From the IMG/VR virus record IMGVR_UViG_3300044981_000214: a stretch of 64,000 nt of DNA; one strand, written 5' to 3'. Shown here one piece after another: positions 424 through 55,281 of this stretch. Both the position numbers and the translations under genes were made by a program. The DNA comes from a virus. Its lineage: Duplodnaviria > Caudoviricetes. Within the stretch, counting starts at the first letter, position 1, and the number at the start of each line of letters is the position of its first letter. The notes under the pieces were generated by a model. The model was given only the letters and a program-made list of their open reading frames with translations. It was not told the DNA's origin and did no database searches.

Positions 424-1305
424 ATGCCATCAACCGATAAACTTGAATCAGCTATAACCAACGCAAGAAAATTTCGGCCACGAACGCGAGAGTTATACCT
501 TCAACACGTTCGCGGTTTCTTGCGCTTTGGTACAGGCAAACGCAAAGTTGACTTAGAACGCGTCGAGCTTTGGCGCGATAGCATGGTCGATCGCGGGGTG
601 GCACCGCAAAGCATTAACGTTGCGTTGAATGCCTTACGGTTCGCTGTAAAGACGGCAGGCTTTACCTTCGGTGACGACATTCAAACCGTGCCCGTACCCG
701 ATAAGGTAACTAGGAAAAGGAATCGGGCTCTGACCTGGAACGAAAGTATTAAGCTGTTAAATTCTTGCGCTACAGATCAGCCGCGGGACATTCGCGATAG
801 AGCCATCATCACACTTGGCTTACGTACTGGCATGTTGCGCTTCAGCCTATGCCAGTTGAAACTAGACGATATAGACAGCGGGACTTTGACTTTCGTGAAA
901 AAAGGCGGACGGAAGCATATTATCAGTCTAGACCACTGTACCGTTGTAGCGTTAACGGCATGGACCGACTGGCTAGCTTCAAATGGCGTGACTTCTGGTC
1001 CGTTGTTTAGAAGCCTCAGTAGACCAACGGCACGGAGTCTGGCTATCGGCCAGCCAAGAGTAGAAATAGGTGGTCTACTGACGCCTGACGGCTTATATCG
1101 AGCGTTCAAGCTTCGAGCGGAGTACGCCGGTATCGACGACTTGAATCCTAACATTTTTCGTCAAACGTTCATCGAGTGGTCCAAGAAAGCCGGGGCTAGT
1201 GCGTCGCAAATCGCGGCTGTCACTGGACATAAATCAGACGGTAACGAGAATAACCGTGAAGGACCTCCTGCCAATTTCTTACTCGACGGTTGGAAACATG
1301 ACTAA
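424..1305 (+). CDS. XerC/D-like tyrosine recombinase, apparently catalytically degenerate
   Basis: N-terminal core-binding domain (PQSINVALNALR); RDRAIITLGLRTGMLR, KKGGR, PNIFRQ (normally PHxxRH), TGH; no Tyr after TGH. Confidence 0.85.
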   Translation: MPSTDKLESAITNARKFRPRTRELYLQHVRGFLRFGTGKRKVDLERVELWRDSMVDRGVAPQSINVALNALRFAVKTAGFTFGDDIQTVPVPDKVTRKRNRALTWNESIKLLNSCATDQPRDIRDRAIITLGLRTGMLRFSLCQLKLDDIDSGTLTFVKKGGRKHIISLDHCTVVALTAWTDWLASNGVTSGPLFRSLSRPTARSLAIGQPRVEIGGLLTPDGLYRAFKLRAEYAGIDDLNPNIFRQTFIEWSKKAGASASQIAAVTGHKSDGNENNREGPPANFLLDGWKHD

Positions 1306-7681: not shown

Positions 7682-8380
7682 TTACTTGCGTCGATTTGAC
7701 AGTATCAAAGCAATAGCGCCTATACCTAACAACGCCGCTCCACCGATAGCCAAATACTTGGCGGTTGGACTAGAAAACAGTCCTACGGAACTTGCAGCTG
7801 CCACTGCTGACGGTCCAATAGATGGCACCGACGCCGACTGTGTTCCTTGATAGCAAGGTGACGAAGAAAGATTTGGGTCCGTTGTGACGCCTTGACATGT
7901 AGCAGCGCTGATCGCGTTGCCATTATCATCCAACGGGACAGTACAATTTGGATCGCTACCACACGCACTGATCTGTACCTGCGTTAGTGTACTAGATGTT
8001 TGCGTTGGTCCCTGTGCCTGAGAAGCCATTGCAGTCGCTTGCTGCATCGCCGGTTGTAGAGCGTTACTTACCGCGGGCCAGATTTGGCTGTTACACCCGC
8101 CCGGTAAGAAAGCAGCTGTAGATACTGCACCATCCCCACCTGACAGTGTTAGTGTTAACGTCTGACTACCGTCGTATACACCAGATATCACTACACCGTG
8201 CATACTTGCATTGGCGGACGATACTGAATAATTGTTACCTGACACAGTTACTGTGAAACCGGAGGACTGTAGTATCTGGACTAAGTTTGCCAGAACTTGC
8301 GGTGTGATATTTGAGATTGTTTGCGATCCGCAAGATGACGCGTCTCCAAAACCGGATCCTGTGTATACAGCTTGTAGCAT
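7682..8380 (-). CDS. S/T/G/Q-rich protein with C-terminal TM and basic tail (putative virion membrane protein)
   Basis: N-terminal GFGDA; C-terminal YLAIGGAALLGIGAIALILSNRRK. Confidence 0.75.
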   Translation of the reverse strand: MLQAVYTGSGFGDASSCGSQTISNITPQVLANLVQILQSSGFTVTVSGNNYSVSSANASMHGVVISGVYDGSQTLTLTLSGGDGAVSTAAFLPGGCNSQIWPAVSNALQPAMQQATAMASQAQGPTQTSSTLTQVQISACGSDPNCTVPLDDNGNAISAATCQGVTTDPNLSSSPCYQGTQSASVPSIGPSAVAAASSVGLFSSPTAKYLAIGGAALLGIGAIALILSNRRK

Positions 8381-8385
8381 ATTCC

Positions 8386-9264
8386 TCAGCCCTTTCTTCG
8401 TATACGCTTACGACGTCGTTGTGTGCCAAAGCCGGAATTCATACGACGTTTGGCTATGTAGTAAGCTGTATAGCCAATCAATGCCAAACCTGCTATTGTC
8501 AATATCCCGTAGATTATCTGTTGTCCCTTAGTCAACGACCCTGCGGTAGCTGCAACCCCACCTTGTTCGAGATCTGCGTCACCAGGACCTATGCTCGTAT
8601 CCGTGCTCGCACTTCCCGAAGCATCAATTGTTGCTTGTTGTACAACCGCGCCCGATCCCATCGTTGCATTGTTAATCAATGACAGATACAAATTTTGTGC
8701 AAACGGTACGGCGCCGGCTGCCTGGAAATGGACACCGTCAGCTGTACGATTATCGGTGCTGGATATAAGGCGGCTATCGATTACATGATCAGCCCCAAAT
8801 ACATTCTGCAGCGTGCTATAGACTACTTGAGCTTGGGCATTACGATTTGCATCAGCAAATATGGGCGGTCCGATTGCCCATGCCTCGGCGTTAGGGAAAG
8901 CTTGACGGATTTGAGTAAAGGCGTTGGCATCTGCAGTAGGATCGAGCCCAAGGTCATTGGTACCAAGAAATACGACTAACTGTGTAGGAGAAAAAACTTG
9001 GTCGGAACTAATCAAGTCTACACCAGTATGAAACTGATACCGTGCACCACCAGTCCAGAAATTTGGCGCAGACCTGCTAACGTTGGCATCGATACGAACG
9101 CCTTGTGCACCGTTTTCCCATAGCATGGACGCTAACAAGTCGCCGGGAGCGGAGCTAGCACGCGTTGAACCTTGATTTACGTCCCAGATTTCTGGATCCG
9201 AGTCAAGACCGTGATGGGAAAGTGAGTCTCCGAACAGCAGTATGCGTTCGCCTTGAACGTTCAC
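8386..9264 (-). CDS. SGNH/GDSL hydrolase with C-terminal TM anchor
   Basis: FGDSL (block I), LGTND (block III), DGVH (block V); TM followed by KRR...GFG...RRRKRIRRK. Confidence 0.85.
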   Translation of the reverse strand: MNVQGERILLFGDSLSHHGLDSDPEIWDVNQGSTRASSAPGDLLASMLWENGAQGVRIDANVSRSAPNFWTGGARYQFHTGVDLISSDQVFSPTQLVVFLGTNDLGLDPTADANAFTQIRQAFPNAEAWAIGPPIFADANRNAQAQVVYSTLQNVFGADHVIDSRLISSTDNRTADGVHFQAAGAVPFAQNLYLSLINNATMGSGAVVQQATIDASGSASTDTSIGPGDADLEQGGVAATAGSLTKGQQIIYGILTIAGLALIGYTAYYIAKRRMNSGFGTQRRRKRIRRKG

Positions 9265-10631
9265 GGCTTAACCTCATGGCGCTTCATTTCTCGATAAACA
9301 CGCTTGGTTTCTACATCCTCGCGATCGACAGGCTTGTGCTTGTTAGCATATTTCTCAACACCGCTCTTAACTCTAGCTATCGTGTTGCCTGTGAAGATGC
9401 GCCTGAACCCAGTCCCATCGTCAAGCAATCCTTCAAATTTGCGTTGCGGGTTAAGGTCTGCATTAGGACGTACAATAACAGCAAAACCGTTAATCGTGTC
9501 CTCCCAGCTGTCTGGGTTTTCCTCGGTCCATTCGGAGAGCATCCGTCTACGTCGTGTAGGTTTCTTATGTCGCCCCAACGCAACCGCAGCACGTTTCCTA
9601 GTGTAATAATACGCACCGTACCCCAACAGCCCCAGTCCAACAATCGCGCCTGCGATCGTTGCATAATGCCAAAATACACCCCACGGGCTTCCAGAAGCGC
9701 GATCAGGGCCAGGATCCTGTGCATCAGAGCCCGGGTCAGCTCCACTTGAGTCACTTGGCGGTGGTATCAGCGCCATATCTGTAGAGTTATCCCCGCCGCT
9801 GTCCGAGCTACATACAGGCATGTCAGCGGGCCATACAGGGCGATTGGTAGCTATGCCATTGACATAGCCCGGATTCGCATAGGCTTGAAGTGCTCGTTGT
9901 ATTAACGCTTGGCCGTCAGTAGAAGCATAAGAAAAAGGGTATCGCTTTAATACTGCCAATCGATAATGATCTACACCTGGAAGCAAGCCTACCCAAAAAC
10001 AACCATTTGGGACTGGAGTAGCGCAGCCCTTCTGATCGCAACACATTGCGTAGTTGTTGATGACGTTCGGGATACTCGGGAAATACTTTTGATACTCCCA
10101 ACCGTCTTGGTCGTTGCCACCACCAGTGAAGTTGTTGCTCTGCCCGGAGAGCACAAAATTAGCAATGATCGCAGCGAGAAAAGACGGGTCCTGAGATGAA
10201 GAGGTCCATCTCCCAGTTGACCCTCCTTGAATTTCGCCGAATAGACCACTATGAGATGTCAAAACGAGCTGAGATACAGTTTGCCCTCGCTGGGCAGCCT
10301 GATTGACGGTTGTTTCGGCTAATGCAACACGTGTCTCGGCCGTCGAGGCTCCAACTTCACTTTGAATATTTCTTGCTAGAGCATAAACGTCCGCTGATAA
10401 AGCTTGACTACTAGGCCATTCAGGCAACCCTGAAGCTTGAAGCTGTTGCTCGGCTGCGGCACGTAAAGCTTCAGGGTTACACGGTATATCGCCTGCTGCA
10501 TTAAGTGCACAACCCGAACTGATGCTAGCTTCATAGTTCGGTTGACCTACAAGCGGCGCTAATTGGCTATGCCAAGTAGGGTAACAAGTAGGATCGGCGT
10601 CACCAAAATAGCCGAAATGACCCCATCGCAT
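9261..10631 (-). CDS. SleB/Hydrolase_2-like cell wall hydrolase with C-terminal TM anchor
   Basis: DVYALARNIQSEVG...RVALAETTVNQ resembles the LARxIxxE motif; acidic linker, TM, basic tail. Confidence 0.65.
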   Translation of the reverse strand: MRWGHFGYFGDADPTCYPTWHSQLAPLVGQPNYEASISSGCALNAAGDIPCNPEALRAAAEQQLQASGLPEWPSSQALSADVYALARNIQSEVGASTAETRVALAETTVNQAAQRGQTVSQLVLTSHSGLFGEIQGGSTGRWTSSSQDPSFLAAIIANFVLSGQSNNFTGGGNDQDGWEYQKYFPSIPNVINNYAMCCDQKGCATPVPNGCFWVGLLPGVDHYRLAVLKRYPFSYASTDGQALIQRALQAYANPGYVNGIATNRPVWPADMPVCSSDSGGDNSTDMALIPPPSDSSGADPGSDAQDPGPDRASGSPWGVFWHYATIAGAIVGLGLLGYGAYYYTRKRAAVALGRHKKPTRRRRMLSEWTEENPDSWEDTINGFAVIVRPNADLNPQRKFEGLLDDGTGFRRIFTGNTIARVKSGVEKYANKHKPVDREDVETKRVYREMKRHEVKP

Positions 10632-11227: not shown

Positions 11228-11461
11228 CTATATGAGGTCGTCATATTTCCCAGTATCTTCTCGTGGCCCTACAATTCGAGAAGGAAATATCCAATATCGA
11301 TCAGGGTGTCTGTGTAACAAATAGTATCTCGGGTCATCCCGATCGTGACAGCGTAACGCATACCCTGCGTTTTCTGCAATTGTGCTAGCCAAATCATGTT
11401 GCCCAACATGTAGGCAAGCTTGCAAGGCGTGCAGCAGTTCAAGAATAGATTCGAAGGTCAT
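11228..11461 (-). CDS. ELLxALQA-module family protein
   Basis: LELLHALQACLHVGQHDLASTIAENAGY. Confidence 0.75.
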   Translation of the reverse strand: MTFESILELLHALQACLHVGQHDLASTIAENAGYALRCHDRDDPRYYLLHRHPDRYWIFPSRIVGPREDTGKYDDLI

Positions 11462-11757
11462 TAGAATAACTTCTGACGTTCATAACCGTAGGACATTCTA
11501 TACACGCCATCAGCTGTTATACGATAGGATAACTTCCATAAATGTTCCTGCCGGTGGATCGTGTAATAATGTTGGCTAAGCCAATTCTCGTTGGTCCACT
11601 CACTAAACACCCATCCTGCATCCTCTGCAAGCGCGTGAGCCAATTTGGGCTGCCTAGCGTTGAAACAAGCTTGGAGCGCGTGCAGTAGCTCAAGTAGCTT
11701 GTTGTTCTCCTCAAGGATTGTAGATGTGGCCTGTTCTGTCATAGCTGACAATTTCAT
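11461..11757 (-). CDS. ELLxALQA-module family protein
   Basis: LELLHALQACFNARQPKLAHALAEDAGW. Confidence 0.75.
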   Translation of the reverse strand: MKLSAMTEQATSTILEENNKLLELLHALQACFNARQPKLAHALAEDAGWVFSEWTNENWLSQHYYTIHRQEHLWKLSYRITADGVYRMSYGYERQKLF

Positions 11758-11962
11758 CCATGTAGACCACGTGACGTGGACGAGGGTTTGCCTTCCCTAC
11801 TTCCTTTATAGGCCGTAGTTCATAACACCGTTGCCCTTGATTATCCCACAACGCTATCAGCCACCATCCATAATCATGGACTATGCACCTTGCTAAGTTA
11901 TACGATTCTCCAGTACGGAGAAGCGCTTGTACCGCTTGGAGTAACTCGTTAGAGAGCGTCAT
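11711..11962 (-). CDS. ELLxALQA-module family protein
   Basis: NELLQAVQALLRTGESYNLARCIVHDYGW. Confidence 0.75.
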   Translation of the reverse strand: MTLSNELLQAVQALLRTGESYNLARCIVHDYGWWLIALWDNQGQRCYELRPIKEVGKANPRPRHVVYMDEIVSYDRTGHIYNP

Positions 11963-12288
11963 GTAAGTGTAGTAGCTTCACCCGCTAACACCCAATTGTC
12001 CGCTAGGCTTCTCCGTGATAAAAATATAACCCGATTCTGATCTGGATTGACTAGATATCCTCTATTGTCAGAGGTCATGATCCAATTTCTTGGCCCGCGA
12101 ATACTCAACGGAGCCCAACGAGTGAATACATGATCGGTACTTGTACCTGATGCAGTTCCCCAGTCAGCGAACGTCAAACGCCAATTAAGCGCTACAGCAA
12201 ACACCATCGCTTCAGCGCGCTTGATATGAATTAACGCCTGTATAGCGTTTATCAGTTCGATGTCGTTATCAATAACAGAGAGACTCAT
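11959..12288 (-). CDS. ELLxALQA-module family protein
   Basis: IELINAIQALIHIKRAEAMVFAVALNW. Confidence 0.7.
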   Translation of the reverse strand: MSLSVIDNDIELINAIQALIHIKRAEAMVFAVALNWRLTFADWGTASGTSTDHVFTRWAPLSIRGPRNWIMTSDNRGYLVNPDQNRVIFLSRRSLADNWVLAGEATTLT

Positions 12289-12737
12289 TTTAGTTCTCGC
12301 TCTGGATCGCCGATAGCACGTCGTAGGAGATTAGCTAAGCCGTTAGCCAACGGTGCGGTCCAGAATGTCGTCTTGCGTGCGTTCGTCAGTTTGTCTAGGA
12401 CCTTTATGATTTCACGAATCGACTCGGCCGTAGTAGGATAATGCGCGCCACAGGCGTCAGCTACTGCTGTTGTAGCCCTTCTGGCAATTTCTTTCTGTTG
12501 GTTCTGTTCTAGTTCTCTCAGATTCAACCACGGACGGTCATCCATACCACTGCCCCAACACTTGTCACAGACGTCGACCGACATAGCTTGCCCGCCTATT
12601 CCCCTGCGCCATCCAGAGGTATTCCCGTACATCTTAGTGCCTAAGCCTGCACACTGTTCGCACGCGTCATCTTCGTTCCGAATGCCTCGCTGTCGCAGTA
12701 GGTCTCGCCAGGCTTCGTCGTAATCGGCGCTACTCAT
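12285..12737 (-). CDS. DnaJ-type zinc-finger protein
   Basis: CEQCAGLG...CDKCWGSG. Confidence 0.65.
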   Translation of the reverse strand: MSSADYDEAWRDLLRQRGIRNEDDACEQCAGLGTKMYGNTSGWRRGIGGQAMSVDVCDKCWGSGMDDRPWLNLRELEQNQQKEIARRATTAVADACGAHYPTTAESIREIIKVLDKLTNARKTTFWTAPLANGLANLLRRAIGDPERELK

Positions 12738-12985
12738 TTGTAGTCCTCTTCTTTAGTTGAGATTACAAACTTTATGCGTTCGGAGCTTACTGAGAAGGTT
12801 TCAGGAATAACCGCGGATCCATTGGACATTTCCAGTTCCTGTTGTTTCTGTAATAATAAACAAAAGGACGATGCATCCATGAACGGGATCACACGCCACC
12901 CAGCAGCTCTGGCTATAGCGTCGGCTTGGTCGTAGTGTCGAATCTTCAGCAAAGCTTGAATAGCGTTAAGGAGTTCGTCATCCAT
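12734..12985 (-). CDS. ELLxALQA-module family protein
   Basis: DELLNAIQALLKIRHYDQADAIARAAGW. Confidence 0.75.
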   Translation of the reverse strand: MDDELLNAIQALLKIRHYDQADAIARAAGWRVIPFMDASSFCLLLQKQQELEMSNGSAVIPETFSVSSERIKFVISTKEEDYK

Positions 12986-13211
12986 GAAATGAAGAGGGAT
13001 CGAGTAAATCTGTAAAATCATCGGGGCTGATCATAATGATGTGTTCGCGGTTCCAACTATTACCGGCTTGTGCAATACGTAGGTACCATCCATCAGAATA
13101 TTTCCAAGCTTGAGCCTCCCAGCCGGCAAATACAGCCAAGTCTTTGGCTTGGCTTATCTCGCCAAGCTTTAACAAAGCTTGAATCGCGTGGATAAGCTCG
13201 ATCGGGAGCAA
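12978..13211 (-). CDS. ELLxALQA-module family protein
   Basis: IELIHAIQALLKLGEISQAKDLAVFAGW. Confidence 0.75.
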   Translation of the reverse strand: MLPIELIHAIQALLKLGEISQAKDLAVFAGWEAQAWKYSDGWYLRIAQAGNSWNREHIIMISPDDFTDLLDPSSFHG

Positions 13212-13217
13212 ACCATC

Positions 13218-13739
13218 TTACTTTCGAGCTTGAAGCTTCGGACGTACCTTTGAGGCTCCTGTGCGAGGCATTTTCTTCACAACTTTACGTGCCACGCGTG
13301 AATTTATCACCGGCTGACTCGCCGCGGTGGTGGAGCCTATTTTCTTATGGTGGCTGCGTTTGGCAGGAACGAGTTGAGTATTGGCTTGCTTGGTTGGTTG
13401 CTTATTTCTCAAGTATGCAGAGACATCAGGAGGGTCTTTAGCGTTGCCCTCTTGTGTATGGAAAACGTCGCAGGCAAGCTTTGCTGAATCGAAGGCCATC
13501 TGGGCGTCGCGTCTGGTAAGGGCGCAGTTATGCCAGGCATCGCGTGCAAGTATGTCCTGCCAATAGGCGACTTTACAAGTCAGGTTAGGACAGCCTTTCG
13601 CTGCATCACCAGCTTTTCGAGCCGCTTCGATTTTCTGTTTTAGCCGTTCGGCTGTGCGTGCCCATTCTTCAGATAACCGTAGGGCTTGTTCGAGGTCTTC
13701 TTGGAGCGTTTTTGGGGGCTTGAGGGTGTGGAGGGTCAT
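13218..13739 (-). CDS. coiled-coil protein with basic C-terminus
   Basis: ATGA coupling at 13739. Confidence 0.6.
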   Translation of the reverse strand: MTLHTLKPPKTLQEDLEQALRLSEEWARTAERLKQKIEAARKAGDAAKGCPNLTCKVAYWQDILARDAWHNCALTRRDAQMAFDSAKLACDVFHTQEGNAKDPPDVSAYLRNKQPTKQANTQLVPAKRSHHKKIGSTTAASQPVINSRVARKVVKKMPRTGASKVRPKLQARK

Positions 13740-14398
13740 CGCATCCCTATCTTTTTTGAATTGATTCGGGTTCTCGAACAAGGCCACCCGTTGTCATCCT
13801 GTTGACAAGTTGTTTCTATACTGGGCATATTAGGACGGTACAAGACCCAAATATCAGAACTGTGATAAGGCCATCTGGCAACTCCGCCTGATTTCAGCAT
13901 CACCATTGTCTTTGCTGCAGATTGATATCCGACTTCGAGAGGAACCAGTCGAGGTCCAACGGTAATTATTGGTCCCGGTACTAATTGCTTAGTCTTTACT
14001 ATAGACCCTCCAAGGTGAATATGATCATACCATCCGAAATTACCGTCATGATCATCATTACCGCCTTGGAAATTTGCGTAGAATTGAGGCGATAACTGTT
14101 CAAGCTTGGCGTTGTTCTCCTCTGTAGCCCTGTCGTTGCCAGGAGTCTCGCCAAGAGATATTCGGGCTATGCGTGTCCGTCCTCGCATAATATCGGCATA
14201 GACCAAAATGAATGCATAAGCATCAGTAAACGTAATAGGCCAACGATCCCATTTTTGGAATATTGCATCTACAAGCGCAGGTTCATAAGGTTTCTTGGCA
14301 TTCAATTTACTTAACACTTGTGCGATCGTTGTTGCCAATTCAGGTTCAACAGCAAGTCTTTTGGACATTGCAGCTTCAAGTTCAGTCTCATAGCTCAT
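13736..14398 (-). CDS. hypothetical protein
   Basis: 220-aa ORF downstream of the recombinase. Confidence 0.65.
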   Translation of the reverse strand: MSYETELEAAMSKRLAVEPELATTIAQVLSKLNAKKPYEPALVDAIFQKWDRWPITFTDAYAFILVYADIMRGRTRIARISLGETPGNDRATEENNAKLEQLSPQFYANFQGGNDDHDGNFGWYDHIHLGGSIVKTKQLVPGPIITVGPRLVPLEVGYQSAAKTMVMLKSGGVARWPYHSSDIWVLYRPNMPSIETTCQQDDNGWPCSRTRINSKKIGMR

Positions 14399-14404
14399 CG
14401 TGTT

Positions 14405-15403
14405 CTATCCTAGTTCCTTAGGCAAAATGCCTGCGGCAGATGTATTCGTTAGATCTGTTGTGTAATGGTCGATGATAGCGTCTGATAGTTGACCCGTAAT
14501 TCGCTTGATTTGATATATAGGAACGCCTCGTGCAACCATGTAACTAATAAACGAGTGACGCATTACGTGAGGGGTTACACCTGTGACTCCTGCAAGACGG
14601 GCTCTTTTTTTTACAGCTTCATATATACCTTCATCTGTAAGCGGCCCTACGAGTTCATCGCTGTTGCGTTTGAATGCTCTAAAAAACGGCCCTGTATTAA
14701 CCCCGTATCGTTTAATTAACACGTCTTGCCATGCGTTTACAGCCTTTATACAAGCTGCATCAAGAGGTACCTCCCAACGACGCTTCCCCTTAAGCTGAAT
14801 CTCTACAACCGCCTCTTTGGTTCTGTACGAAGTTTTGAAGTCCGTGAGTAGAATGCCTGCCATACCTGATCTACGCATTCCTGTCCGAAAACCAAGGACT
14901 AGTATCGCAAAGTCTCTTACATCTCTCGGATTATTACTCCGACAGGTATTTAATATAGCAGCTGCGGAAGACTCAGGAATAGCATACCTATTCTTTTTAC
15001 TCTCTTCCTTCTTTAGTTTAAGCCCGTCGGCGAAGTCATATTTGGCTATACTCTCCCCCGCTCGTTTGACACGTAACGCGTAGGCTCTAGAAACCCAACG
15101 AATGGCCTTAGTATAAAGGAGTACGCTTTGTGGGCTTAGCGGCGCAGGCGCTCGTCGTCTACGGTCACTGCTTATTAGGTTAAGTTCAAGGCCCGAGGCT
15201 GACAATTTCTTTCGCCAATCCTGTACGGCTGCAGTTGTCCAGTCTTTGCGTGCCCCACCAGCAAAGGCTATAAAGTCTCGGATTGCACGTTCATACAGGC
15301 GAGATGTTTCAGGGCTAAAGTCGTCTTTATTAGCTTCTAATGTCGTTAACAGAGTCTCCGTCGGCACGGCTTTTACCCTCTCATAGCGAAACCCTAAAGT
15401 CAA
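14405..15403 (-). CDS. XerC/D-like tyrosine recombinase (start probably GTG at 15367)
   Basis: RDFAILVLGFRTGMRRS (R), KGKR (K), PHVMRH (HxxR), TGQ, DHYT (catalytic Y). Confidence 0.9.
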   Translation of the reverse strand: MTLGFRYERVKAVPTETLLTTLEANKDDFSPETSRLYERAIRDFIAFAGGARKDWTTAAVQDWRKKLSASGLELNLISSDRRRRAPAPLSPQSVLLYTKAIRWVSRAYALRVKRAGESIAKYDFADGLKLKKEESKKNRYAIPESSAAAILNTCRSNNPRDVRDFAILVLGFRTGMRRSGMAGILLTDFKTSYRTKEAVVEIQLKGKRRWEVPLDAACIKAVNAWQDVLIKRYGVNTGPFFRAFKRNSDELVGPLTDEGIYEAVKKRARLAGVTGVTPHVMRHSFISYMVARGVPIYQIKRITGQLSDAIIDHYTTDLTNTSAAGILPKELG

Positions 15404-21200: not shown

Positions 21201-22322
21201 ATGATCCTGACCTACAAATATCGGCTCAAAGGTAAGCGTACAGTTCGTCAACAGCGACAGTTTGCTTGGGCTGTAAACCAAGTGTGGAATTTCTGCGTTG
21301 CCGTGCAGCGCAAGATCCAGCGGAATTGGAAAGAAGGGTTGTTATCAAAATGGCCGTCCTTCTACGATTTGAAGGATCTGACCGCAGGATCCTCCAAAGA
21401 ATTGAGCCTTCATGCACAAACGATTCAGGATGTTTGTGCCCAATTTGTGAAGTCACGTGATCAACACAAGAGATGCCCAAAGTTTCGTAAGTCGAACGGA
21501 TCAAAACGTTCTCTTGGGTGGGTTCCATTTGAGGGACAGTCCCGGCAGATCACCTCTAGCTCGGTAACATATCTCGGCAACGAATATCGTTTCTTTGGTG
21601 CTAAGCGGCGTCCTCTTCCTGACACTGCTAAAGGCGGTTGTTTTGTAGAAGATGCGCGGGGACGGTGGTGGGTTTGCTTCCATGTCGAAGTTGATCAGTT
21701 GCAGCAAGCACCTGCTAAGGCAGTTGGGATCGATCTTGGACTGAAGACGCTAGCAACGTTATCAACAAATAAGAAGATCGAGGCGCCAAAGTTCTATCGA
21801 AAGCTTGAAAAGAAACTTGCGACGGCCCAACGGGCTAATAATCACGATCTAGCAAAAGCAGTAAATGCCAAAATCGCAAACCGTCGTCGTGATCACACGC
21901 ATAAATGGACGACGTGGTTAGCTAACAACTATAGCTTAATTTGTGTAGGCGATGTTTCAAGTTCTAAACTGGCCAAGACGTCGATGGCAAAGTCCATCAA
22001 CGATGCAGGCTGGTACGCTTCCAAGAAAGCCCTTGATTATAAAGCCAGAAGGCGCCAAGGGATATTCGAAGAAGTGTCAGAGCGTTTCACGACCCAAACC
22101 TGTTCGGCTTGTGGAATGACCCCCGAGTCGAGTCCGAAAGGTATCGCAGGGCTTGGAATAAGGGAATGGGTATGTTCTGAATGTGGCACAAGCCATGACC
22201 GAGACGTGAACTCGGCACAGAACATACTTAATCTCGGGCTGAGTGCGCTGTCGAAAAGCCAGCTGAGAATCCTAGCGGGTGCTCATCAGCCTCCTGTGGA
22301 GGAAAGCCGGGTTGCTCAATGA
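21201..22322 (+). CDS. tnpB: TnpB RNA-guided endonuclease (IS200/IS605 type), no tnpA
   Basis: TYKYRL N-terminus, GIDLG (RuvC-I), VGDV plus downstream E.FTTQTC, CxxC..CxxC, HDRDVN (RuvC-III). Confidence 0.92.
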   Translation: MILTYKYRLKGKRTVRQQRQFAWAVNQVWNFCVAVQRKIQRNWKEGLLSKWPSFYDLKDLTAGSSKELSLHAQTIQDVCAQFVKSRDQHKRCPKFRKSNGSKRSLGWVPFEGQSRQITSSSVTYLGNEYRFFGAKRRPLPDTAKGGCFVEDARGRWWVCFHVEVDQLQQAPAKAVGIDLGLKTLATLSTNKKIEAPKFYRKLEKKLATAQRANNHDLAKAVNAKIANRRRDHTHKWTTWLANNYSLICVGDVSSSKLAKTSMAKSINDAGWYASKKALDYKARRRQGIFEEVSERFTTQTCSACGMTPESSPKGIAGLGIREWVCSECGTSHDRDVNSAQNILNLGLSALSKSQLRILAGAHQPPVEESRVAQ

Positions 22323-22924: not shown

Positions 22925-23797
22925 TTATTTGGCTAACTGGTTCAAATAATATCCGTATGAGCTACTGATATGCTGGTCCGCTATAGTCTGTAGATTTTCT
23001 TTGGATATCCAGTTGTTAGCGTATGCAATTTCTTCGGGACAGGCTATATACAACCCCTGACGGCGCTGGACAGCCTCCACGAAATTGGCTGCGTCCAGTA
23101 ACGACTCGTGTGTACCCATGTCAAACCAGGCATTACCACGACCGAGTACATCGACATGAAGCCGATCAAGATTCAAGTAGACTTGATTCAGATCTGTTAT
23201 CTCTAACTCGTTACGCGCTGACGGTTTCAAGTCAAATGCTATTTTGCTGACCCCTGGTGGATAGAAATAGAGTCCTGGAACAGCTAAATCGGACTTTGGA
23301 GTAATCGGTTTCTCTTGTAGAGATAACGGTCGACCTATTGATGACAGTTCGACCACGCCATAAGCTGTCGGGTTAGTGACGTGATAGCCAAATATCACGG
23401 CTGCATTGCGTCTCTCGGTCTTGATTGTTGCGTCTTTAAGTCGCTGTGACAATGTCGCGCCGTAGATCAGATTATCGCCAAGAGTCAAGACAACGGGATC
23501 ATCACCTATAAAGTCTTCACCGATAATCAGTGCCTCAGCAATGCCACGAGATTCGAGCTGAACCTGATAGGTGAAGTGCAAGCCAAACTGGCTACCATCG
23601 CCGAGTAGGCGCTTGAAAAGGTATTCGTCTTGGAGCGTGCATATGATCAATATTTCTTGTATGCCCGCAAGCATTAATGTGCTCAGGGGATAATAGATCA
23701 TCGGCTTGTCATAGACAGGCAGCAGCTGTTTAGAGAACGGGAGAGTTATAGGCCAGAGTCGAGTAGACTTGCCGCCAGCTAGAACGATGCCTTTCAT
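22925..23797 (-). CDS. rmlA: glucose-1-phosphate thymidylyltransferase
   Basis: GIVLAGGKSTRLWP, SKQLLPVYDKPMIYYPL, LGDN, EKP, ARNELEITD, GRGNAWFDMGT, ACPEEIA. Confidence 0.95.
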   Translation of the reverse strand: MKGIVLAGGKSTRLWPITLPFSKQLLPVYDKPMIYYPLSTLMLAGIQEILIICTLQDEYLFKRLLGDGSQFGLHFTYQVQLESRGIAEALIIGEDFIGDDPVVLTLGDNLIYGATLSQRLKDATIKTERRNAAVIFGYHVTNPTAYGVVELSSIGRPLSLQEKPITPKSDLAVPGLYFYPPGVSKIAFDLKPSARNELEITDLNQVYLNLDRLHVDVLGRGNAWFDMGTHESLLDAANFVEAVQRRQGLYIACPEEIAYANNWISKENLQTIADQHISSSYGYYLNQLAK

Positions 23798-23993: not shown

Positions 23994-24629
23994 ATGAAGC
24001 GTCACCGTGTAGACTTTAGTTTTGGCGACTCAGCCGATGACAGTTTTCTTGTTGCACGCGATGCAATTGAAGAAAAAAGACCAGGCTGGGAACAGCACGT
24101 AACCAAGATCATGGCTCAGGTTAAGCAAGAATATCCTGATGCAACGATTCCAGATGATCTAGGTCCATGGGACCCGGACTGGTGGGCCGCGTTTGCTGAA
24201 GGCGCTGCTCGCGCTATTTGGTCGGATACCTATATTACCGAGGTTGAACAGCTTACCGAAAGCGATGATCCAGGCGATCGAGAAGCCTATCGCGAGTTGT
24301 CCCCTGGACCCGGTGGAGCGTGGGAGTCTGTGATACCTGAAACTGTTCCTACGTCAGCAGAGAAACAGGGCAAGGAGTTCACGACGCAAGTGCGAAGAGC
24401 GTTGAAAAGAGAGGATCAAATAGAAGTAGCGTCTAAGCTTGACGCAGACACCGCAGGATGGTATGGGATGATGCAGGCACTAGGGCACGGTATGGGTTGG
24501 GGCGACTACGACATCAACGCTGATCCTGATATTCATGCTATGCCTGATACTGACGTCTACAACGACGCCTACCAGGCTGTGACTGAAGCGCTAGAAGAAG
24601 CCGGATACGAGAGAGCAGACGAAGAATAA
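23994..24629 (+). CDS. acidic hypothetical protein with basic/FG leader
   Basis: MKRHRVDFSFGD; GHGMGWGD. Confidence 0.7.
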   Translation: MKRHRVDFSFGDSADDSFLVARDAIEEKRPGWEQHVTKIMAQVKQEYPDATIPDDLGPWDPDWWAAFAEGAARAIWSDTYITEVEQLTESDDPGDREAYRELSPGPGGAWESVIPETVPTSAEKQGKEFTTQVRRALKREDQIEVASKLDADTAGWYGMMQALGHGMGWGDYDINADPDIHAMPDTDVYNDAYQAVTEALEEAGYERADEE

Positions 24630-50995: not shown

Positions 50996-52294
50996 TTAAA
51001 TCTCCACATCGATAGCCCGCGCGTAAACCGGCACGTCTTTATGATTCTTGGACCCTAGCAGCGCAACCACCGTACGGTGGACGTTGGCAGGCTTCGGAGG
51101 CCAAGTTCCCCAGATTTCTCCATCAGTCAAGTGCACCATCGTATTAAAGCGCCCCCGCTCCTTGCCCACACGTTCGTAGGCTTCATCGAATGAAGTGCCG
51201 CCTCGGCCCTTCATTTTGGAAGAAACAAACTTGATCACGTTCCCCTTGCCACCAGGACGAATCCAGCAAGCTTCCTGGACGCCTGCATCATGCACGACAA
51301 GAAAAACAGGCACGTTGGTGTGATTGACAATAGCTGTAGTCTCAGCAACAGCACGGTTCAGGTCGTCGTCGGACATTGAGCCAGACGTGTCAATTACCAC
51401 ACTCACACGGCACTTATGCGTCACACCACCAGGGAAGATAAATTGCGTATTCGAGCGCCGTGAGCGCCTACTCCACGAGACATCATCATGGCCTGCTGCT
51501 GCAAGCGCTCGACTCAATGCTCCACGGAGGACTTCACCCCAACGGACTTTTGGCTCAGGTACGTTAAGTAGCTTGGCGAGCAAATTGCCTGCACCGTCGC
51601 CAGCACGCTGACCTTCCATTTGTGCTTGGACGGCTGCTTCGTGCCACTGTCGCTTAGCTGCTTCGATTTCGTCGCGCGTTAGTGGTGTACCGTCCTCGTG
51701 CCGAGGCGTCTCATCGTCGTTGGAGCCACTACCTGAATCGCCCATCACACCGCAGCCATTGCCCGCTACAGTCTGTTCGGGATCTTGACCTTCAAGACCC
51801 GGATCATCAGGCGTCTGATTGTAGAGTTCTTCCGACGTTAGCTCGGCTTCTGCGTCAGTTGCAATGACACCGCACTTAGGCATACGAAAAATATCGTGCT
51901 TCGTATTGCCAACCAACGTCTTTTCAATTTCTTTGAGATTGTAGTTAATGATTTTGTCATTAACGAAGTTCCACTTACCATGCTTACGCGTACCACGTCG
52001 GCCGTGGTGCATCATAAACAGGTGCATGATTTCGTGTGCAATCACGAACCTGACTTCTGGGTCACTCAATGTTGCAGCCCATTTAGGCGAGAATCTAACA
52101 ATGCCGTTAATCTGTACGCATGCCGTAGCGATACGTTCATCGGCACGAAATTCAATTCGCGCCAGACCAGGCATGAAGAAAGGACTGATCTTCCAACCAA
52201 GTACGAGCGTTTGAGCCTTCAGACGCTCGACCAGCGCACGATTGGCTGCAGGGTCGCTCTTCTGCGGATTAGGATCTTTGGTTGGAGCCGGCAT
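50996..52294 (-). CDS. metallopeptidase-VWA domain protein (DUF2201-like)
   Basis: HEIMH; DTSGSMS (MIDAS), GRGGTSF, LTDG. Confidence 0.88.
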   Translation of the reverse strand: MPAPTKDPNPQKSDPAANRALVERLKAQTLVLGWKISPFFMPGLARIEFRADERIATACVQINGIVRFSPKWAATLSDPEVRFVIAHEIMHLFMMHHGRRGTRKHGKWNFVNDKIINYNLKEIEKTLVGNTKHDIFRMPKCGVIATDAEAELTSEELYNQTPDDPGLEGQDPEQTVAGNGCGVMGDSGSGSNDDETPRHEDGTPLTRDEIEAAKRQWHEAAVQAQMEGQRAGDGAGNLLAKLLNVPEPKVRWGEVLRGALSRALAAAGHDDVSWSRRSRRSNTQFIFPGGVTHKCRVSVVIDTSGSMSDDDLNRAVAETTAIVNHTNVPVFLVVHDAGVQEACWIRPGGKGNVIKFVSSKMKGRGGTSFDEAYERVGKERGRFNTMVHLTDGEIWGTWPPKPANVHRTVVALLGSKNHKDVPVYARAIDVEI

Positions 52295-52298
52295 AATT

Positions 52299-52535
52299 TT
52301 ATGATACCGGTTTATCGGTACAGAAAGCCAGGCAGATAGGGTTAGGGGAGGCTAGAATCTCCTTAAGCGTCAAAAGACCTGTCTTTAGGAAGTATTTGCT
52401 CATGGAGGCCAGAACATATATCTTGTCGTCCGACGCCACAGGTTCATACCTATTCAACGCAGTTCTAATATCCCTAGCTAGTTCAACAGTGACACCGTTC
52501 GCATCGAGTCGCTCTTTCAACTCGGCCCAAGTCAT
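52299..52535 (-). CDS. hypothetical protein
   Basis: coupled between the AAA and VWA genes. Confidence 0.5.
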   Translation of the reverse strand: MTWAELKERLDANGVTVELARDIRTALNRYEPVASDDKIYVLASMSKYFLKTGLLTLKEILASPNPICLAFCTDKPVS

Positions 52536-53611
52536 TTCGTCATCCCCTTGTTGGTCTTAGCCAACATCCTGATCTGTGCCTTCTTGCCCTCGGTAAAGAA
52601 CAAGGTTTTCGTGGTGTCCTTGCGCATGACCAACATACGAGCACAAGCAGCACCAATCTCAGGCGTCAGACGGTCAGCGTAAATCCAGGCTGCATAACTG
52701 TCTTTCTCGGCGACGCGAGCAAGCAAGCCGACCGCAGCAATCTGCTTGTCCTTGCCCTCGGGAACCTTCGCGCTAGCTGGGTTGGTCGCGATCTCTTCGA
52801 CACTCGGCAACGACTTGCGTTGCTTGCGGATACCGAAGAAAGTAATCGCTTTGTGCTCTCCGACAGCACCGGCAAGAATCGAATAACCGATGCTGTCTTC
52901 CTCTTTGGAGTTGTTGTAGCCAACACCTGCCTTGTCGCAATAATGCGCGTAGGCTTGGAGTCCGCGGTCCCAAGCCCGAGGGCTTCCAAAGGGCAGCCCA
53001 CCATCGATAGAGGCCTTAGGTGGGCTCATGTCGAGCAAGTCACTGTTGACTGACAACGTACCAGCAAAGTCAACGAACTCGTCGAAAACACGAGTACCAG
53101 ACTTCTGAGCGTTGGTGAAGTAGCCCATGATCTCGTCGATATCAGGCTGAAAGTCGTCAAGACGGACAACGCGGTTGACCGTCGCTGCGTCCAGCTCGAT
53201 GCCACCAGGACACTCCTCTGGGCGATTCGCAGCAGCCACGACAACAGAATCCTTATGAAGCTGTTGTCCGCCCGCATAACCTTCAAGCATCAAACGCATC
53301 AACGGGGCTCTCACAGAGGCACTACATGTGGTGATTTCATCCAAGAAAAGTATTCCCGGCTTATCCACACAGGCTTGAATCTGAGGCAGAAGCGCGCGGC
53401 GAAATTCGCCGTCAACAATATACGGCATACCGCCGATATCTGTCACATCACAATTCGAAGCTAGCAACTCATGGCACGGCAACTTGAAGTCTCTTGCAAC
53501 TTCACGAATACATGCGGTTTTGGCCACTCCTGGTGGACCGACCAATAGGACTGTAATCTTGGCGTCAACACAGGCGGAAATCGCCTGCTTAGCTTGCTTG
53601 AAATTCAACAT
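52532..53611 (-). CDS. MoxR-like AAA+ ATPase
   Basis: GPPGVAKT, LFLDE, AAANRPE, NR, SPRAW. Confidence 0.9.
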   Translation of the reverse strand: MLNFKQAKQAISACVDAKITVLLVGPPGVAKTACIREVARDFKLPCHELLASNCDVTDIGGMPYIVDGEFRRALLPQIQACVDKPGILFLDEITTCSASVRAPLMRLMLEGYAGGQQLHKDSVVVAAANRPEECPGGIELDAATVNRVVRLDDFQPDIDEIMGYFTNAQKSGTRVFDEFVDFAGTLSVNSDLLDMSPPKASIDGGLPFGSPRAWDRGLQAYAHYCDKAGVGYNNSKEEDSIGYSILAGAVGEHKAITFFGIRKQRKSLPSVEEIATNPASAKVPEGKDKQIAAVGLLARVAEKDSYAAWIYADRLTPEIGAACARMLVMRKDTTKTLFFTEGKKAQIRMLAKTNKGMTK

Positions 53612-53696
53612 CGATACCTTTACCTTAGAGAAGAGCTGTGAAACTTGTCAAGAGTAAGTTGTAGAATTTGGACAGTCTTGCGTGTCGGAGTAAAAT

Positions 53697-54611
53697 GTGT
53701 TAAATGTCTTGACCTTGGCAGATACAACCGACGCGGCGTGGCTGGTAAAATGCCCTGTATGCGACCGTTCGTTCAAGCGCATAAGTACAGGACATCTAAA
53801 TACACACGGCTTGACCTTGTTACAAGCCCGAGAACGTTTCCCGGGCATGCTAACAGAAGCACCTGAGGCAACCAAGGCTAGAGTAGGGAAGTCGTCGGCA
53901 ACATTACGAGAACGCATAAAGTCCGATCCAGAAGTGGCCGCGTTCTGGGCTGCGCACGGGAAGAAGTTGTATGAAAGGCTAGAAAGAAAAACCACGAAAC
54001 AAGAACGACGAGATCGCTCTATTAATTCCCTCCAAGCTTGGCGGGACACTATGTCGTCGGAAGAACTAAGTGAAACGTCTCGAAAAAGAATGGCAACAGC
54101 GCGTGAACGGTTCCCCGATTTAGCTAGTATGGGCGGCATAGCAGCAGGAGAATTCCAAAGGAAGCCAGAGACCCGGAAAGTGACTTCGAAGCGATTTAAG
54201 AAACTCTGGGAGGACCCTGAGCATCGAGCCAAGGTATCAGCAGCGAATTCGAAGGCGGCGATTGAAGGGCGTATTCCTGTTGTTTTCAATGCATCACGTC
54301 CGACGGAACTTGAGAAACGTTTAATAATCCTGTTCAAGAATTGGGGAATACCGTTCCGATATACAGGAGACGGATCGTTCAGAATTCCAACACCAGATGG
54401 ATGCCGAAATTGGCGAAATCCTGATTTCATCCATACAGACAACATAAAGTCAGCGATCTTATTAGATTCTTATGTTTCAGCAGAACATGATAGCGAGACA
54501 GCAGATTATGCCAACGCAGGGTGGAAGATCCTTAGAATAAACGTAGCCGAGATGAACGATCCCGAATGGCTACAACACAAGCTCCAAATATTTATCGCTG
54601 GCCTAGTTTGA
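53697..54611 (+). CDS. free-standing homing-endonuclease-like protein (Zn finger, helical repeats, Vsr/PD-(D/E)xK-like domain)
   Basis: CPVC..HL..H; NPDF; GWKILRI; opposite strand to its neighbours. Confidence 0.7.
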   Translation: MLNVLTLADTTDAAWLVKCPVCDRSFKRISTGHLNTHGLTLLQARERFPGMLTEAPEATKARVGKSSATLRERIKSDPEVAAFWAAHGKKLYERLERKTTKQERRDRSINSLQAWRDTMSSEELSETSRKRMATARERFPDLASMGGIAAGEFQRKPETRKVTSKRFKKLWEDPEHRAKVSAANSKAAIEGRIPVVFNASRPTELEKRLIILFKNWGIPFRYTGDGSFRIPTPDGCRNWRNPDFIHTDNIKSAILLDSYVSAEHDSETADYANAGWKILRINVAEMNDPEWLQHKLQIFIAGLV

Positions 54612-55281
54612 TGCCGTCGAGAATAATTTCTCGTGCCTTTTTATATTCGCCTGCGTCCATTACCGCTAGGGCGGCATGGCGATAGTCCGATGGCAGTTGC
54701 TCGTAACCCGGGAAGGCTTCAATGCCGCATTCATGTAGGTCCAGTTGAGTCAGACCAGCACGAAGCGCGTCCCTGACGGCGAAACGGACAGCTCTAGCTC
54801 CGCTAGAACTGATTACAGGACGTACAGCATCTTCTGGATCCTCATCAATAATTCGATCTCCTCGCTTATCTCGTATGTGTTCGCTCCAAGTAGCTTGAAC
54901 CATTCCGTCAATAATTGATTCGACAGTACTCTGATTGCGTTGACGATTGACCAGTTCAGTCGACGTAAGCTGAAAAAAGCCTCGAATTTGTTTGTCCGTG
55001 TACCAGTCACGTATAGGTTTGGCAGAAGCACGGACCATATAGGGCTGTAATTTGCAACAAATCGCTCTTGGATAAGTCCCCAACAGATCAGAACGAACAC
55101 TGATCTTACGATCAGCAAGACGCTTCAAAACGGCTATAAGAAATCGTATACGTTCCCAGTCCCAATTGACCAGTTGCTCTACAGCAGTAGCGGCTTGATC
55201 AGCAGTAAGAGTCTCTTGGTAAATCTTGGCAGTCATACTTTCGAGCTTAGCGAAATCGACATCCTTGATACTCACGATCAT
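54592..55281 (-). CDS. hypothetical protein with C-terminal ELLxALQA-like module
   Basis: ends SDYRHAALAVMDAGEYKKAREII. Confidence 0.65.
   Translation of the reverse strand: MIVSIKDVDFAKLESMTAKIYQETLTADQAATAVEQLVNWDWERIRFLIAVLKRLADRKISVRSDLLGTYPRAICCKLQPYMVRASAKPIRDWYTDKQIRGFFQLTSTELVNRQRNQSTVESIIDGMVQATWSEHIRDKRGDRIIDEDPEDAVRPVISSSGARAVRFAVRDALRAGLTQLDLHECGIEAFPGYEQLPSDYRHAALAVMDAGEYKKAREIILDGIKLGQR

Follow-up and report, generated by a model that had tools for sequence, protein, structure and literature searches.

The 64-kb window analyzed here is the whole 64,000-nucleotide (nt) stretch of the IMG/VR virus record IMGVR_UViG_3300044981_000214. It carries three adjacent genes on the minus strand, referred to as genes 1, 2, and 3, with P0001, P0002, and P0003 as their respective products. 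The open reading frame (ORF) listing places the genes exactly where an earlier reading of the DNA, made without database searches (hereafter, the sequence-only reading), had drawn them. We tentatively interpret the three genes as a jointly transcribed module with which a large, uncultured bacterial virus would breach the cell wall, with substrates, topology, and timing inferred, and we give this interpretation slightly less than an even chance of being correct. The genes are the following; here and below, residue ranges are counted on the translations.

9261..10631, minus strand: gene 1 (P0001), 456 amino acids (aa); putative lytic transglycosylase of the SleB fold, carrying a C-terminal membrane anchor plus an extension confined to this lineage
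8386..9264, minus strand: gene 2 (P0002), 292 aa, GTG start; SGNH/GDSL esterase with a C-terminal anchor
7682..8380, minus strand: gene 3 (P0003), 232 aa; Ser/Thr-rich anchored protein with a four-Cys module

The stop of gene 1 overlaps the start of gene 2 by 4 nt, genes 2 and 3 are separated by 5 nt, and GAGG-type ribosome sites precede the starts of P0002 and P0003. Given this spacing and these sites, the three genes very likely form one operon. A scan for promoters and terminators remained near the level of shuffled sequence (4 promoter-like sites where shuffling gave a mean of 4.3, and 7 terminator-like sites where it gave 3.2). The shared architecture described in the sequence-only reading was confirmed on inspection: all three proteins lack an N-terminal signal and display a low-complexity linker, a C-terminal transmembrane segment (TM), and a basic cluster. 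A hydropathy scan combined with inspection, rather than SignalP, detected no hydrophobic segment within the first 30 residues of P0001, P0002, or P0003. Tail anchoring, which had also been claimed for the whole set, agrees with the TM position in P0002 and P0003; in the strict sense, it fails for P0001, where 93 more residues (364-456) follow the basic cluster.

This layout is rare within the window. Of its 121 non-overlapping ORFs with 70 aa or more, just three, genes 1-3, combine a large N-terminal domain with one C-terminal TM and a tail that is basic overall (P0001 was added to this count by inspection). By our own arithmetic, the chance of three such ORFs being neighbors is approximately 119/C(121,3) = 4e-4. 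A poly-basic C-terminal tail is unspecific by itself, since 11 of 137 window ORFs carry one, mostly without a TM. The arrangement is kept in relatives at 43-67% identity.

Gene 1 encodes the largest product of the operon, which is divided as follows.

10602..10631, minus strand: N-terminal leader MRWGHFGYFG, before DADP; common to P0001 and P0005 of lineage L001
9786..10601, minus strand: SleB-like ectodomain, residues 11-282; Glu92 at 10356-10358; Cys pairs C16/C274 and C41/C51
9663..9785, minus strand: low-complexity S/D/P/G linker, residues 283-323; homologs differ in its length and sequence
9603..9662, minus strand: Gly/Ala/Tyr-rich TM, residues 324-343; 50% G/A/S/T
9543..9602, minus strand: basic juxtamembrane stretch and tag ending in VALG-RHKKPTRRRR, residues 344-363
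9264..9542, minus strand: C-terminal extension of 93 residues, residues 364-456; this lineage only

P0001 yielded no Pfam match at E <= 1 and none in PHROGs, and tblastn returned no match in the phage collection or in 72,556 plasmids. A word-indexed protein search recovered three homologs only; an exhaustive profile search enlarged the family to 288 representative clusters, with E <= 1e-10 for 155. Most members comprise 270-330 aa, with a CxPxWH motif almost at the start and the TM and basic tail at the end. Sequence profiles of the family against the PDB produced nothing meaningful, and the Hydrolase_2 model (PF07486) was touched by only 1 of 150 members (E 0.0018).

Structural modeling was more informative. 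AlphaFold2 produced a poor model of P0001 from a four-sequence alignment (predicted local distance difference test, pLDDT, 44.7), and a 150-sequence alignment raised the pLDDT to 89.9, with a predicted template modeling score (pTM) of 0.89. VIA-align matched the gene 1 model to 4fet_A (Z 8.5, root-mean-square deviation (rmsd) 2.8 Å, 111/122 residues) and 4f55_A (Z 8.1), so that 111 of the 122-128 residues of the SleB catalytic domain were superposed at an rmsd of 2.8-3.2 Å. The next-best rows reached Z 3.6 and corresponded to MltG and SpoIID, both of which cleave peptidoglycan glycan strands. In BFVD, approximately half of the top 50 matches were phage proteins whose annotation reads SleB or cell-wall hydrolase, with a probability of up to 0.99. 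Foldseek against the PDB returned nothing at E <= 0.001, with SleB as a weak match at rank 11. Judged from the model, the gene 1 family is SleB-type at the fold level and lies outside PF07486. The sequence-only reading had called 9261..10631 SleB/Hydrolase_2-like, and the distance between the SleB rows and the next-best rows, together with the BFVD list, sustains that call.

Conservation within the family points to a candidate active site. Positions Y83, A86, R87, E92, P149, A157, G163, W213, and G215 are near-invariant in the 150-sequence alignment. Of 146 aligned members, 142 have Glu92, which in the model stands at the end of helix 80-93, the first core helix. The 4f55 alignment range (model residue 75 to chain residue 140) would place Glu92 near residue 157, which we take to be the catalytic Glu of Bacillus cereus SleB; this placement derives from the range and not from a residue-level superposition. 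An essential catalytic glutamate is documented for SleB (PMC12331253). Most likely, the gene 1 product would cut peptidoglycan glycan strands as a diverged lytic transglycosylase of the SleB/Hydrolase_2 fold, with Glu92 as the predicted catalytic acid.

Both ends of P0001 set it apart from most of its family. The three closest homologs (P0005-P0007, 363-393 aa) end directly after the basic cluster and lack the extension, which has no Pfam match and no homolog among the sequences collected here. The MRWGHFGYFG-type leader is missing from P0006, P0007, and most family members, which start at the CxPxWH motif. The (G/Y)FGDA starts noted from the sequence in two of the proteins are present, as GYFGDA in P0001 and SGFGDA in P0003. 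Elsewhere in the window, a 211-aa ORF at 23994-24629 (plus strand) starts with MKRHRVDFSFGD, a basic leader followed by FG-D as in P0001 and P0003, which means that the leader also occurs outside the operon.

Gene 2 encodes an esterase of simpler organization, with two defined parts.

8665..9264, minus strand: SGNH catalytic domain, residues 1-200; GDS-Ser14, Asn103, Asp176, and His179
8389..8517, minus strand: TM (250-271) and basic tag KRR..SGFG-TQRRRKRIRRKG (272-292)

P0002 matches PF00657 (Lipase_GDSL) at 29.7 bits against a cut-off of 23.6, and it scores 24.3 bits against PF13472, under the 32.9-bit cut-off of that model. Its last 21 residues include 11 K/R. The homologs form 123 clusters, nearly all of which open at residue 1 with M..G.R.L.FGDSL.H; since the GDS block begins at residue 1, there is no room for a leader. 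Across 36 family members, G12-D13-S14, G41, G101-T102-N103, and H179 are invariant, and D176 is near-invariant. The Pfam score and the complete catalytic set bear out the SGNH esterase call made from the sequence for this 292-aa protein. Searched against the PDB, the family profile recovers many SGNH structures, including the OatA C-domain (E 4.5e-5), Ape1 (5.6e-4), and PatB (8.6e-4). That the gene 2 product de-O-acetylates peptidoglycan is a reasonable prediction. In that role, it would most likely strip O-acetyl groups that would otherwise block the predicted gene 1 cut. Many SGNH relatives (P0018, P0023, P0026, and others) continue for 100-270 extra residues beyond the TM and basic LG tag, and these additions include GNAT, EncFtn-like, and DUF5661 domains.

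The third protein has a composite structure that can be given in one line.

7682..8380, minus strand: gene 3 parts, namely leader MLQAVYTGSGFG, small N-domain, Q/A/S/T-rich region with the four-Cys module, TM 209-228 (7697-7756), and tail NRRK

P0003 has no Pfam or PHROGs match, its homolog search returned P0003 alone, and an ESM Atlas search gave sub-threshold leads only. An ORF of L001 is 37% identical to P0003 and represents its ortholog. At 12003-14168, L001 carries three Ser/Thr-rich, Cys-rich, C-terminally anchored P0003 relatives, comprising this ortholog and two paralogs. All of these P0003-type proteins contain a C..DPNC...C...SPC[Y/F] module, and two end in ...[L/F]G-RRRRRR. The gene 3 product may serve as a disulfide-rich, Ser/Thr-rich accessory protein alongside the two enzymes.

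The anchor follows a common pattern within each genome and across unrelated enzymes. It comprises a Gly/Ala-rich TM with terminal aromatics, two to three basic residues, a short spacer, an [L/F/Y]G motif, and a poly-Arg/Lys end, and it was read in unrelated enzymes of L001, L002, and L006. The TMs consist of 41-50% G/A/S/T, and that of P0001 is weakly hydrophobic (mean hydropathy of ~1.2 by hand calculation). The similarity between the TMs of the two enzymes, already noticed from the sequence, amounts to an ungapped anchor identity of 10/19. One shared C-terminal anchor would hold each of the three proteins on a membrane.

Several features bear on the orientation of this anchor. In the gene 1 family, Cys16 and Cys274 are both present in 90 of 150 members, and Cys41 and Cys51 in 96 of 150, a paired conservation that indicates a disulfide pattern. 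The GNAT acetyltransferase and EncFtn-like domains that follow the TM in SGNH relatives are both of cytoplasmic type. Together with the basic cluster after the TM and the Cys-rich composition of P0003 and its paralogs, these features argue for enzyme domains on the non-cytoplasmic face and a basic tail on the cytoplasmic face. A classical tail-anchored layout, with a cytoplasmic N-terminal domain, agrees with the TM position in P0002, P0003, and their homologs and not with that in P0001, and the orientation signs point the opposite way. A more far-reaching proposal, which we regard as unlikely, is that the anchor and the N-terminal FG-D leaders together form a virus-specific sorting and maturation code. 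Such a code would direct N-out insertion by an undescribed route, loading into the internal membrane of a ~229 kb tailless virus, and trimming after glycine by a viral C39-like protease. If this were true, the proteins would be targeted by a system new to science, and a viral membrane would carry a complete kit for drilling through the wall.

Gene order in relatives connects the two enzymes. In six lineages (the window, L001, L002, L006, L015, and L016), the SGNH gene comes immediately after the SleB-like gene. Moreover, P0129 is a natural fusion of SleB-like and SGNH domains with no TM between them; the two domains therefore work on the same membrane side, probably together. Another candidate GDSL fusion, P0198, was rejected because the gene call seems to extend it wrongly by 240 residues at the N-terminus, which leaves P0129 as the real fusion. 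Adjacency in six lineages and the fusion protein support the functional coupling that the sequence-only reading had proposed. A comparable association is found in Zymomonas mobilis, in which sleB adjoins the pat operon for peptidoglycan O-acetylation and sleB loss resembles patA loss (bioRxiv 10.64898/2026.07.21.739787).

Peptidases extend the set in several relatives. A C39-like peptidase is encoded just upstream in L001, L002, L015, and L016, and an M23 peptidase gene adjoins the SleB-like gene in L006 and L018. Where the peptidase sequences were read (C39-like of L001 and L002; M23 of L006), they carry the same anchor. With an M23 or C39-like peptidase on this anchor, the glycan, peptide, and ester bonds of the wall could be attacked from one membrane surface. 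In L006, the M23/SleB-like/SGNH cassette is headed by a 212-aa protein (8661-9299) with a two-helix C-terminal membrane domain, a ...GFG-RRRFSRNHRTPKYFRRRA tail, and no family match.

The nature of the element was assessed from the window and from its relatives. The window encodes two tyrosine integrases, TnpB, DnaB, ParB, and a MoxR/VWA pair, with no structural gene among its annotated ORFs. A blastn search of a 7-kb window stretch against phages gave no match, and the species-representative genomes scanned contained no relative and hence no host clue. Relatives with the SleB-like gene are IMG/VR viral contigs of 78-221 kb, of which G001 and G002 also carry an adjacent SGNH gene. Two relatives are rated 100% complete, namely G002 (221 kb) and G003 (85.6 kb, direct terminal repeats). 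The sequence-only reading had set its proposal of a membrane-containing virion against a standard tailed-phage module. Four hallmark families of such a module (PF05065, PF03237, PF03354, and PF04860, representing an HK97-type capsid, two large terminase subunits, and a portal) found no match in G002 or G003, and the controls matched. A comparison of all 118 ORFs of G003 with Pfam and PHROGs listed no capsid, terminase, portal, or tail-tube family. The families listed for G003 include phage-type replication, nucleotide metabolism, and fibre/spike-like (pectate-lyase) proteins. The only FtsK-like match, a weak FtsK_SpoIIIE hit in G003, was rejected as a packaging ATPase and corresponds to a Sak4-like annealing protein/recombinase.

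Each complete relative also encodes a soluble enzyme that combines GH25 and PG_binding_1 domains and has no TM.

L022 1363-2235, equal to G002 ~39.2-40.1 kb: GH25 + PG_binding_1; ~120 kb from the anchored cassette
G003 37-747, running on across the terminal repeat: GH25 + PG_binding_1

A further GH25 + PG_binding_1 gene lies ~2 kb from the SleB-like gene in L017, and none is present within the 64-kb window, beyond which the genome continues for about 165 kb. No holin-like gene was seen beside the GH25 endolysins of the relatives. Since the complete relatives possess their own GH25 endolysin, the anchored enzymes constitute a second muralytic system. By analogy with P7 of phage PRD1, this system may act during entry, on a virus-derived membrane, a role that we consider plausible and hold only tentatively. 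Entry ranks somewhat above a main-lysis role, because the complete relatives combine a soluble GH25 endolysin with no detectable tailed-phage genes, and the other roles taken together rank lowest.

The lysis alternative is a serious competitor, only somewhat less probable than entry. It holds that the proteins are membrane-tethered endolysins, gathered at the host membrane late in infection and then released or activated, with the esterase and peptidase widening the range of bonds attacked. Published anchored endolysins without a signal peptide depend on their transmembrane domain (TMD) and lyse cells without a holin or the Sec system (PMC7143992, PMC8943055), and the Gly/Ala-rich composition of the TMs resembles that of releasable signal-arrest-release anchors. 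The cassette lies outside any recognizable structural module, and the BFVD matches of the gene 1 model are dominated by phage SleB-like hydrolases. Such phage hydrolases are usually annotated as endolysins, which was counted in favor of lysis. However, the complete relatives already encode a classical soluble endolysin at another place in the genome. Among the annotated neighbors of the cassette, no gene for a holin or spanin was recognized, although small membrane proteins may have escaped notice, and neither poly-Arg tails nor paired disulfide Cys have been reported for the Enc34 or M4Lys proteins.

Host-envelope remodeling appears improbable. In this scenario, enzymes on the host cytoplasmic membrane would act locally, relaxing or modifying the wall or a different O-acetylated polymer (teichoic acid, capsule, or lipopolysaccharide), and would take no part in entry or final lysis. 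Possible purposes include making room for the assembly of very large particles, blocking superinfection, and changing receptors. The SGNH profile, which does not favor peptidoglycan O-acetyl enzymes over generic esterases, is compatible with this scenario, as is the early or accessory appearance of the region, with its integrases and many small ORFs. The varied domains behind the TM of SGNH relatives (GNAT, EncFtn-like, and DUF5661) likewise suggest regulatory or metabolic coupling. Nevertheless, the steady pairing with a SleB-fold enzyme and with peptidases of M23 or C39-like type suggests that peptidoglycan is broken down, not edited. Still less probable is that the element is a plasmid or an integrative element whose module opens the wall at the cell surface or in connection with conjugation, as do the lytic transglycosylases of type IV secretion systems. 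ParB, DnaB, the two tyrosine integrases, TnpB, and the missing structural gene in the window would agree with such an origin. Yet the relatives of the cassette are viral contigs, one with terminal repeats and two rated complete, and G003 encodes pectate-lyase proteins of fibre/spike type and phage-type replication genes. In addition, neither the 72,556 plasmids nor the species-representative genomes contained a match, and no conjugation gene was seen.

Several points weigh against interpreting the operon as a wall-breaching module that acts at entry. The cassette has integrase genes, small ORFs, and replication genes for neighbors and is not part of a structural module, and the hallmark absences are negative results of hidden Markov model searches obtained on relatives. 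P0001 itself lacks a Pfam match, and contact with Hydrolase_2 across its family is limited to a single member in 150. For gene 2, the generic esterases 1yzf, 8zbc, and TesA score equal to or above OatA, Ape1, and PatB. Finally, we know of no pathway by which an N-terminal domain of 200-330 residues that lacks a signal peptide would cross a membrane. This export gap for the N-terminal enzyme domain has also been stated for Enc34-type endolysins (PMC8943055).

Other features of the window complete the description of the locus. Directly upstream of the operon, four tandem paralogous small ORFs (77-109 aa; 11228-12288, minus strand) share the N-terminal motif LLELLHALQAC...A..AGW. The tyrosine integrases flank the region at 424-1305 (plus strand) and 14405-15403 (minus strand), and the first is 63% identical to a syntenic integrase of L001. 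A TnpB/IS605 OrfB-type gene with a Cas12f1-like TNB domain (21201-22322, plus strand) is 61% identical to its L002 copy. One ORF, possibly that at 22925-23797, matches NTP_transferase (E 1.4e-66) as a sugar-nucleotidyltransferase. The minus-strand stretch 50996-56939 encodes a MoxR-type AAA ATPase (52532-53611) and a DUF2201 metallopeptidase/VWA protein (50996-52294). Within the same stretch, 55281-56939 (minus strand) encodes a 552-aa protein with a PEP-utilizers mobile domain (phrog_11532).

The relevance of the operon extends beyond this single virus. A family of 288 clusters, essentially without a Pfam match, can now be placed as a diverged SleB-fold wall cutter on the basis of its modeled structure. 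The anchor pattern suggests that uncultured large viruses put a glycan cutter, an esterase, and a peptidase on one common C-terminal membrane anchor. The pairing and fusion of SleB-fold and SGNH domains provide a testable case of de-O-acetylation coupled to glycan cleavage. This layout also sharpens a question raised by Enc34 and M4Lys, namely how an N-terminal enzyme domain gets to the wall when a protein has a TM at its C-terminus only. Should the three proteins prove to belong to the virion, they would constitute the entry machinery of a bacterial virus that contains a membrane and is unusually large.

Comparison with characterized systems defines what is familiar in this operon and what is not. 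The gene 1 family shares with SleB/CwlJ and the phage SleB-like hydrolases (PF07486; 4fet, 4f55) the fold of the catalytic domain, and its near-invariant Glu at the end of the first core helix may correspond to the essential catalytic glutamate of SleB. The family differs in lacking a significant PF07486 match, in the size of its domain (~270 residues against ~120 for the SleB catalytic domain), and in an extra Cys-stapled N-terminal part and insertions. P0001 likewise has no peptidoglycan-binding N-domain and ends with a C-terminal TM and poly-basic tail. The gene 2 product shares the SGNH catalytic set with Ape1, PatB, and the OatA C-domain, and the linkage of a SleB-type gene to O-acetyl-peptidoglycan genes recurs in Z. 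mobilis. In contrast, the viral enzyme matches these proteins no better than it does TesA-type esterases, starts at the GDS block, and is anchored at its C-terminus.

Among viral systems, PRD1 offers the closest parallel for an entry role. PRD1 P7, like a comparable enzyme of Bam35, is a lytic transglycosylase whose C-terminal TM fixes it to the membrane inside a tailless virion. PRD1 also encodes the soluble endolysin P15 beside membrane-bound P7. Two of these features recur here, namely a C-terminal TM behind a putative glycan-cleaving domain (in P0001, with 93 extra residues after the anchor) and a separate soluble endolysin, GH25 in G002 and G003 in place of P15; the relatives likewise have no detectable tailed-phage genes. 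The differences are nonetheless considerable. P7 is of the SLT type, whereas gene 1 is predicted to have a SleB fold, and the PRD1 genome measures ~15 kb against ~229 kb here. The present system combines an esterase, M23 or C39-like peptidases, and accessory proteins on one anchor with [L/F/Y]G-poly-Arg tags.

The parallel for lysis is found in the chivirus-type endolysins (Enc34 ORF39, BSPM4 M4Lys, and Siskin). Enc34 ORF39 and M4Lys are anchored endolysins of tailed phages that require their TMD and achieve lysis without a holin or Sec (PMC7143992, PMC8943055). The chivirus-type enzymes resemble the operon proteins in their layout: the catalytic domain comes first, no signal peptide precedes it, and the chain closes with a TMD that has a charged end. 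Unlike them, they belong to a holin-spanin cassette of tailed phages, of which no counterpart was recognized here. They also adopt a PHA02564 lysozyme-like fold rather than a SleB-like one, and Enc34 has a two-helix TMD where the operon proteins have a single TM. Taken together, these comparisons place the operon among C-terminally anchored muralytic enzymes, a known kind, to which it would add a previously unrecognized SleB-fold family and a shared, tagged anchor.

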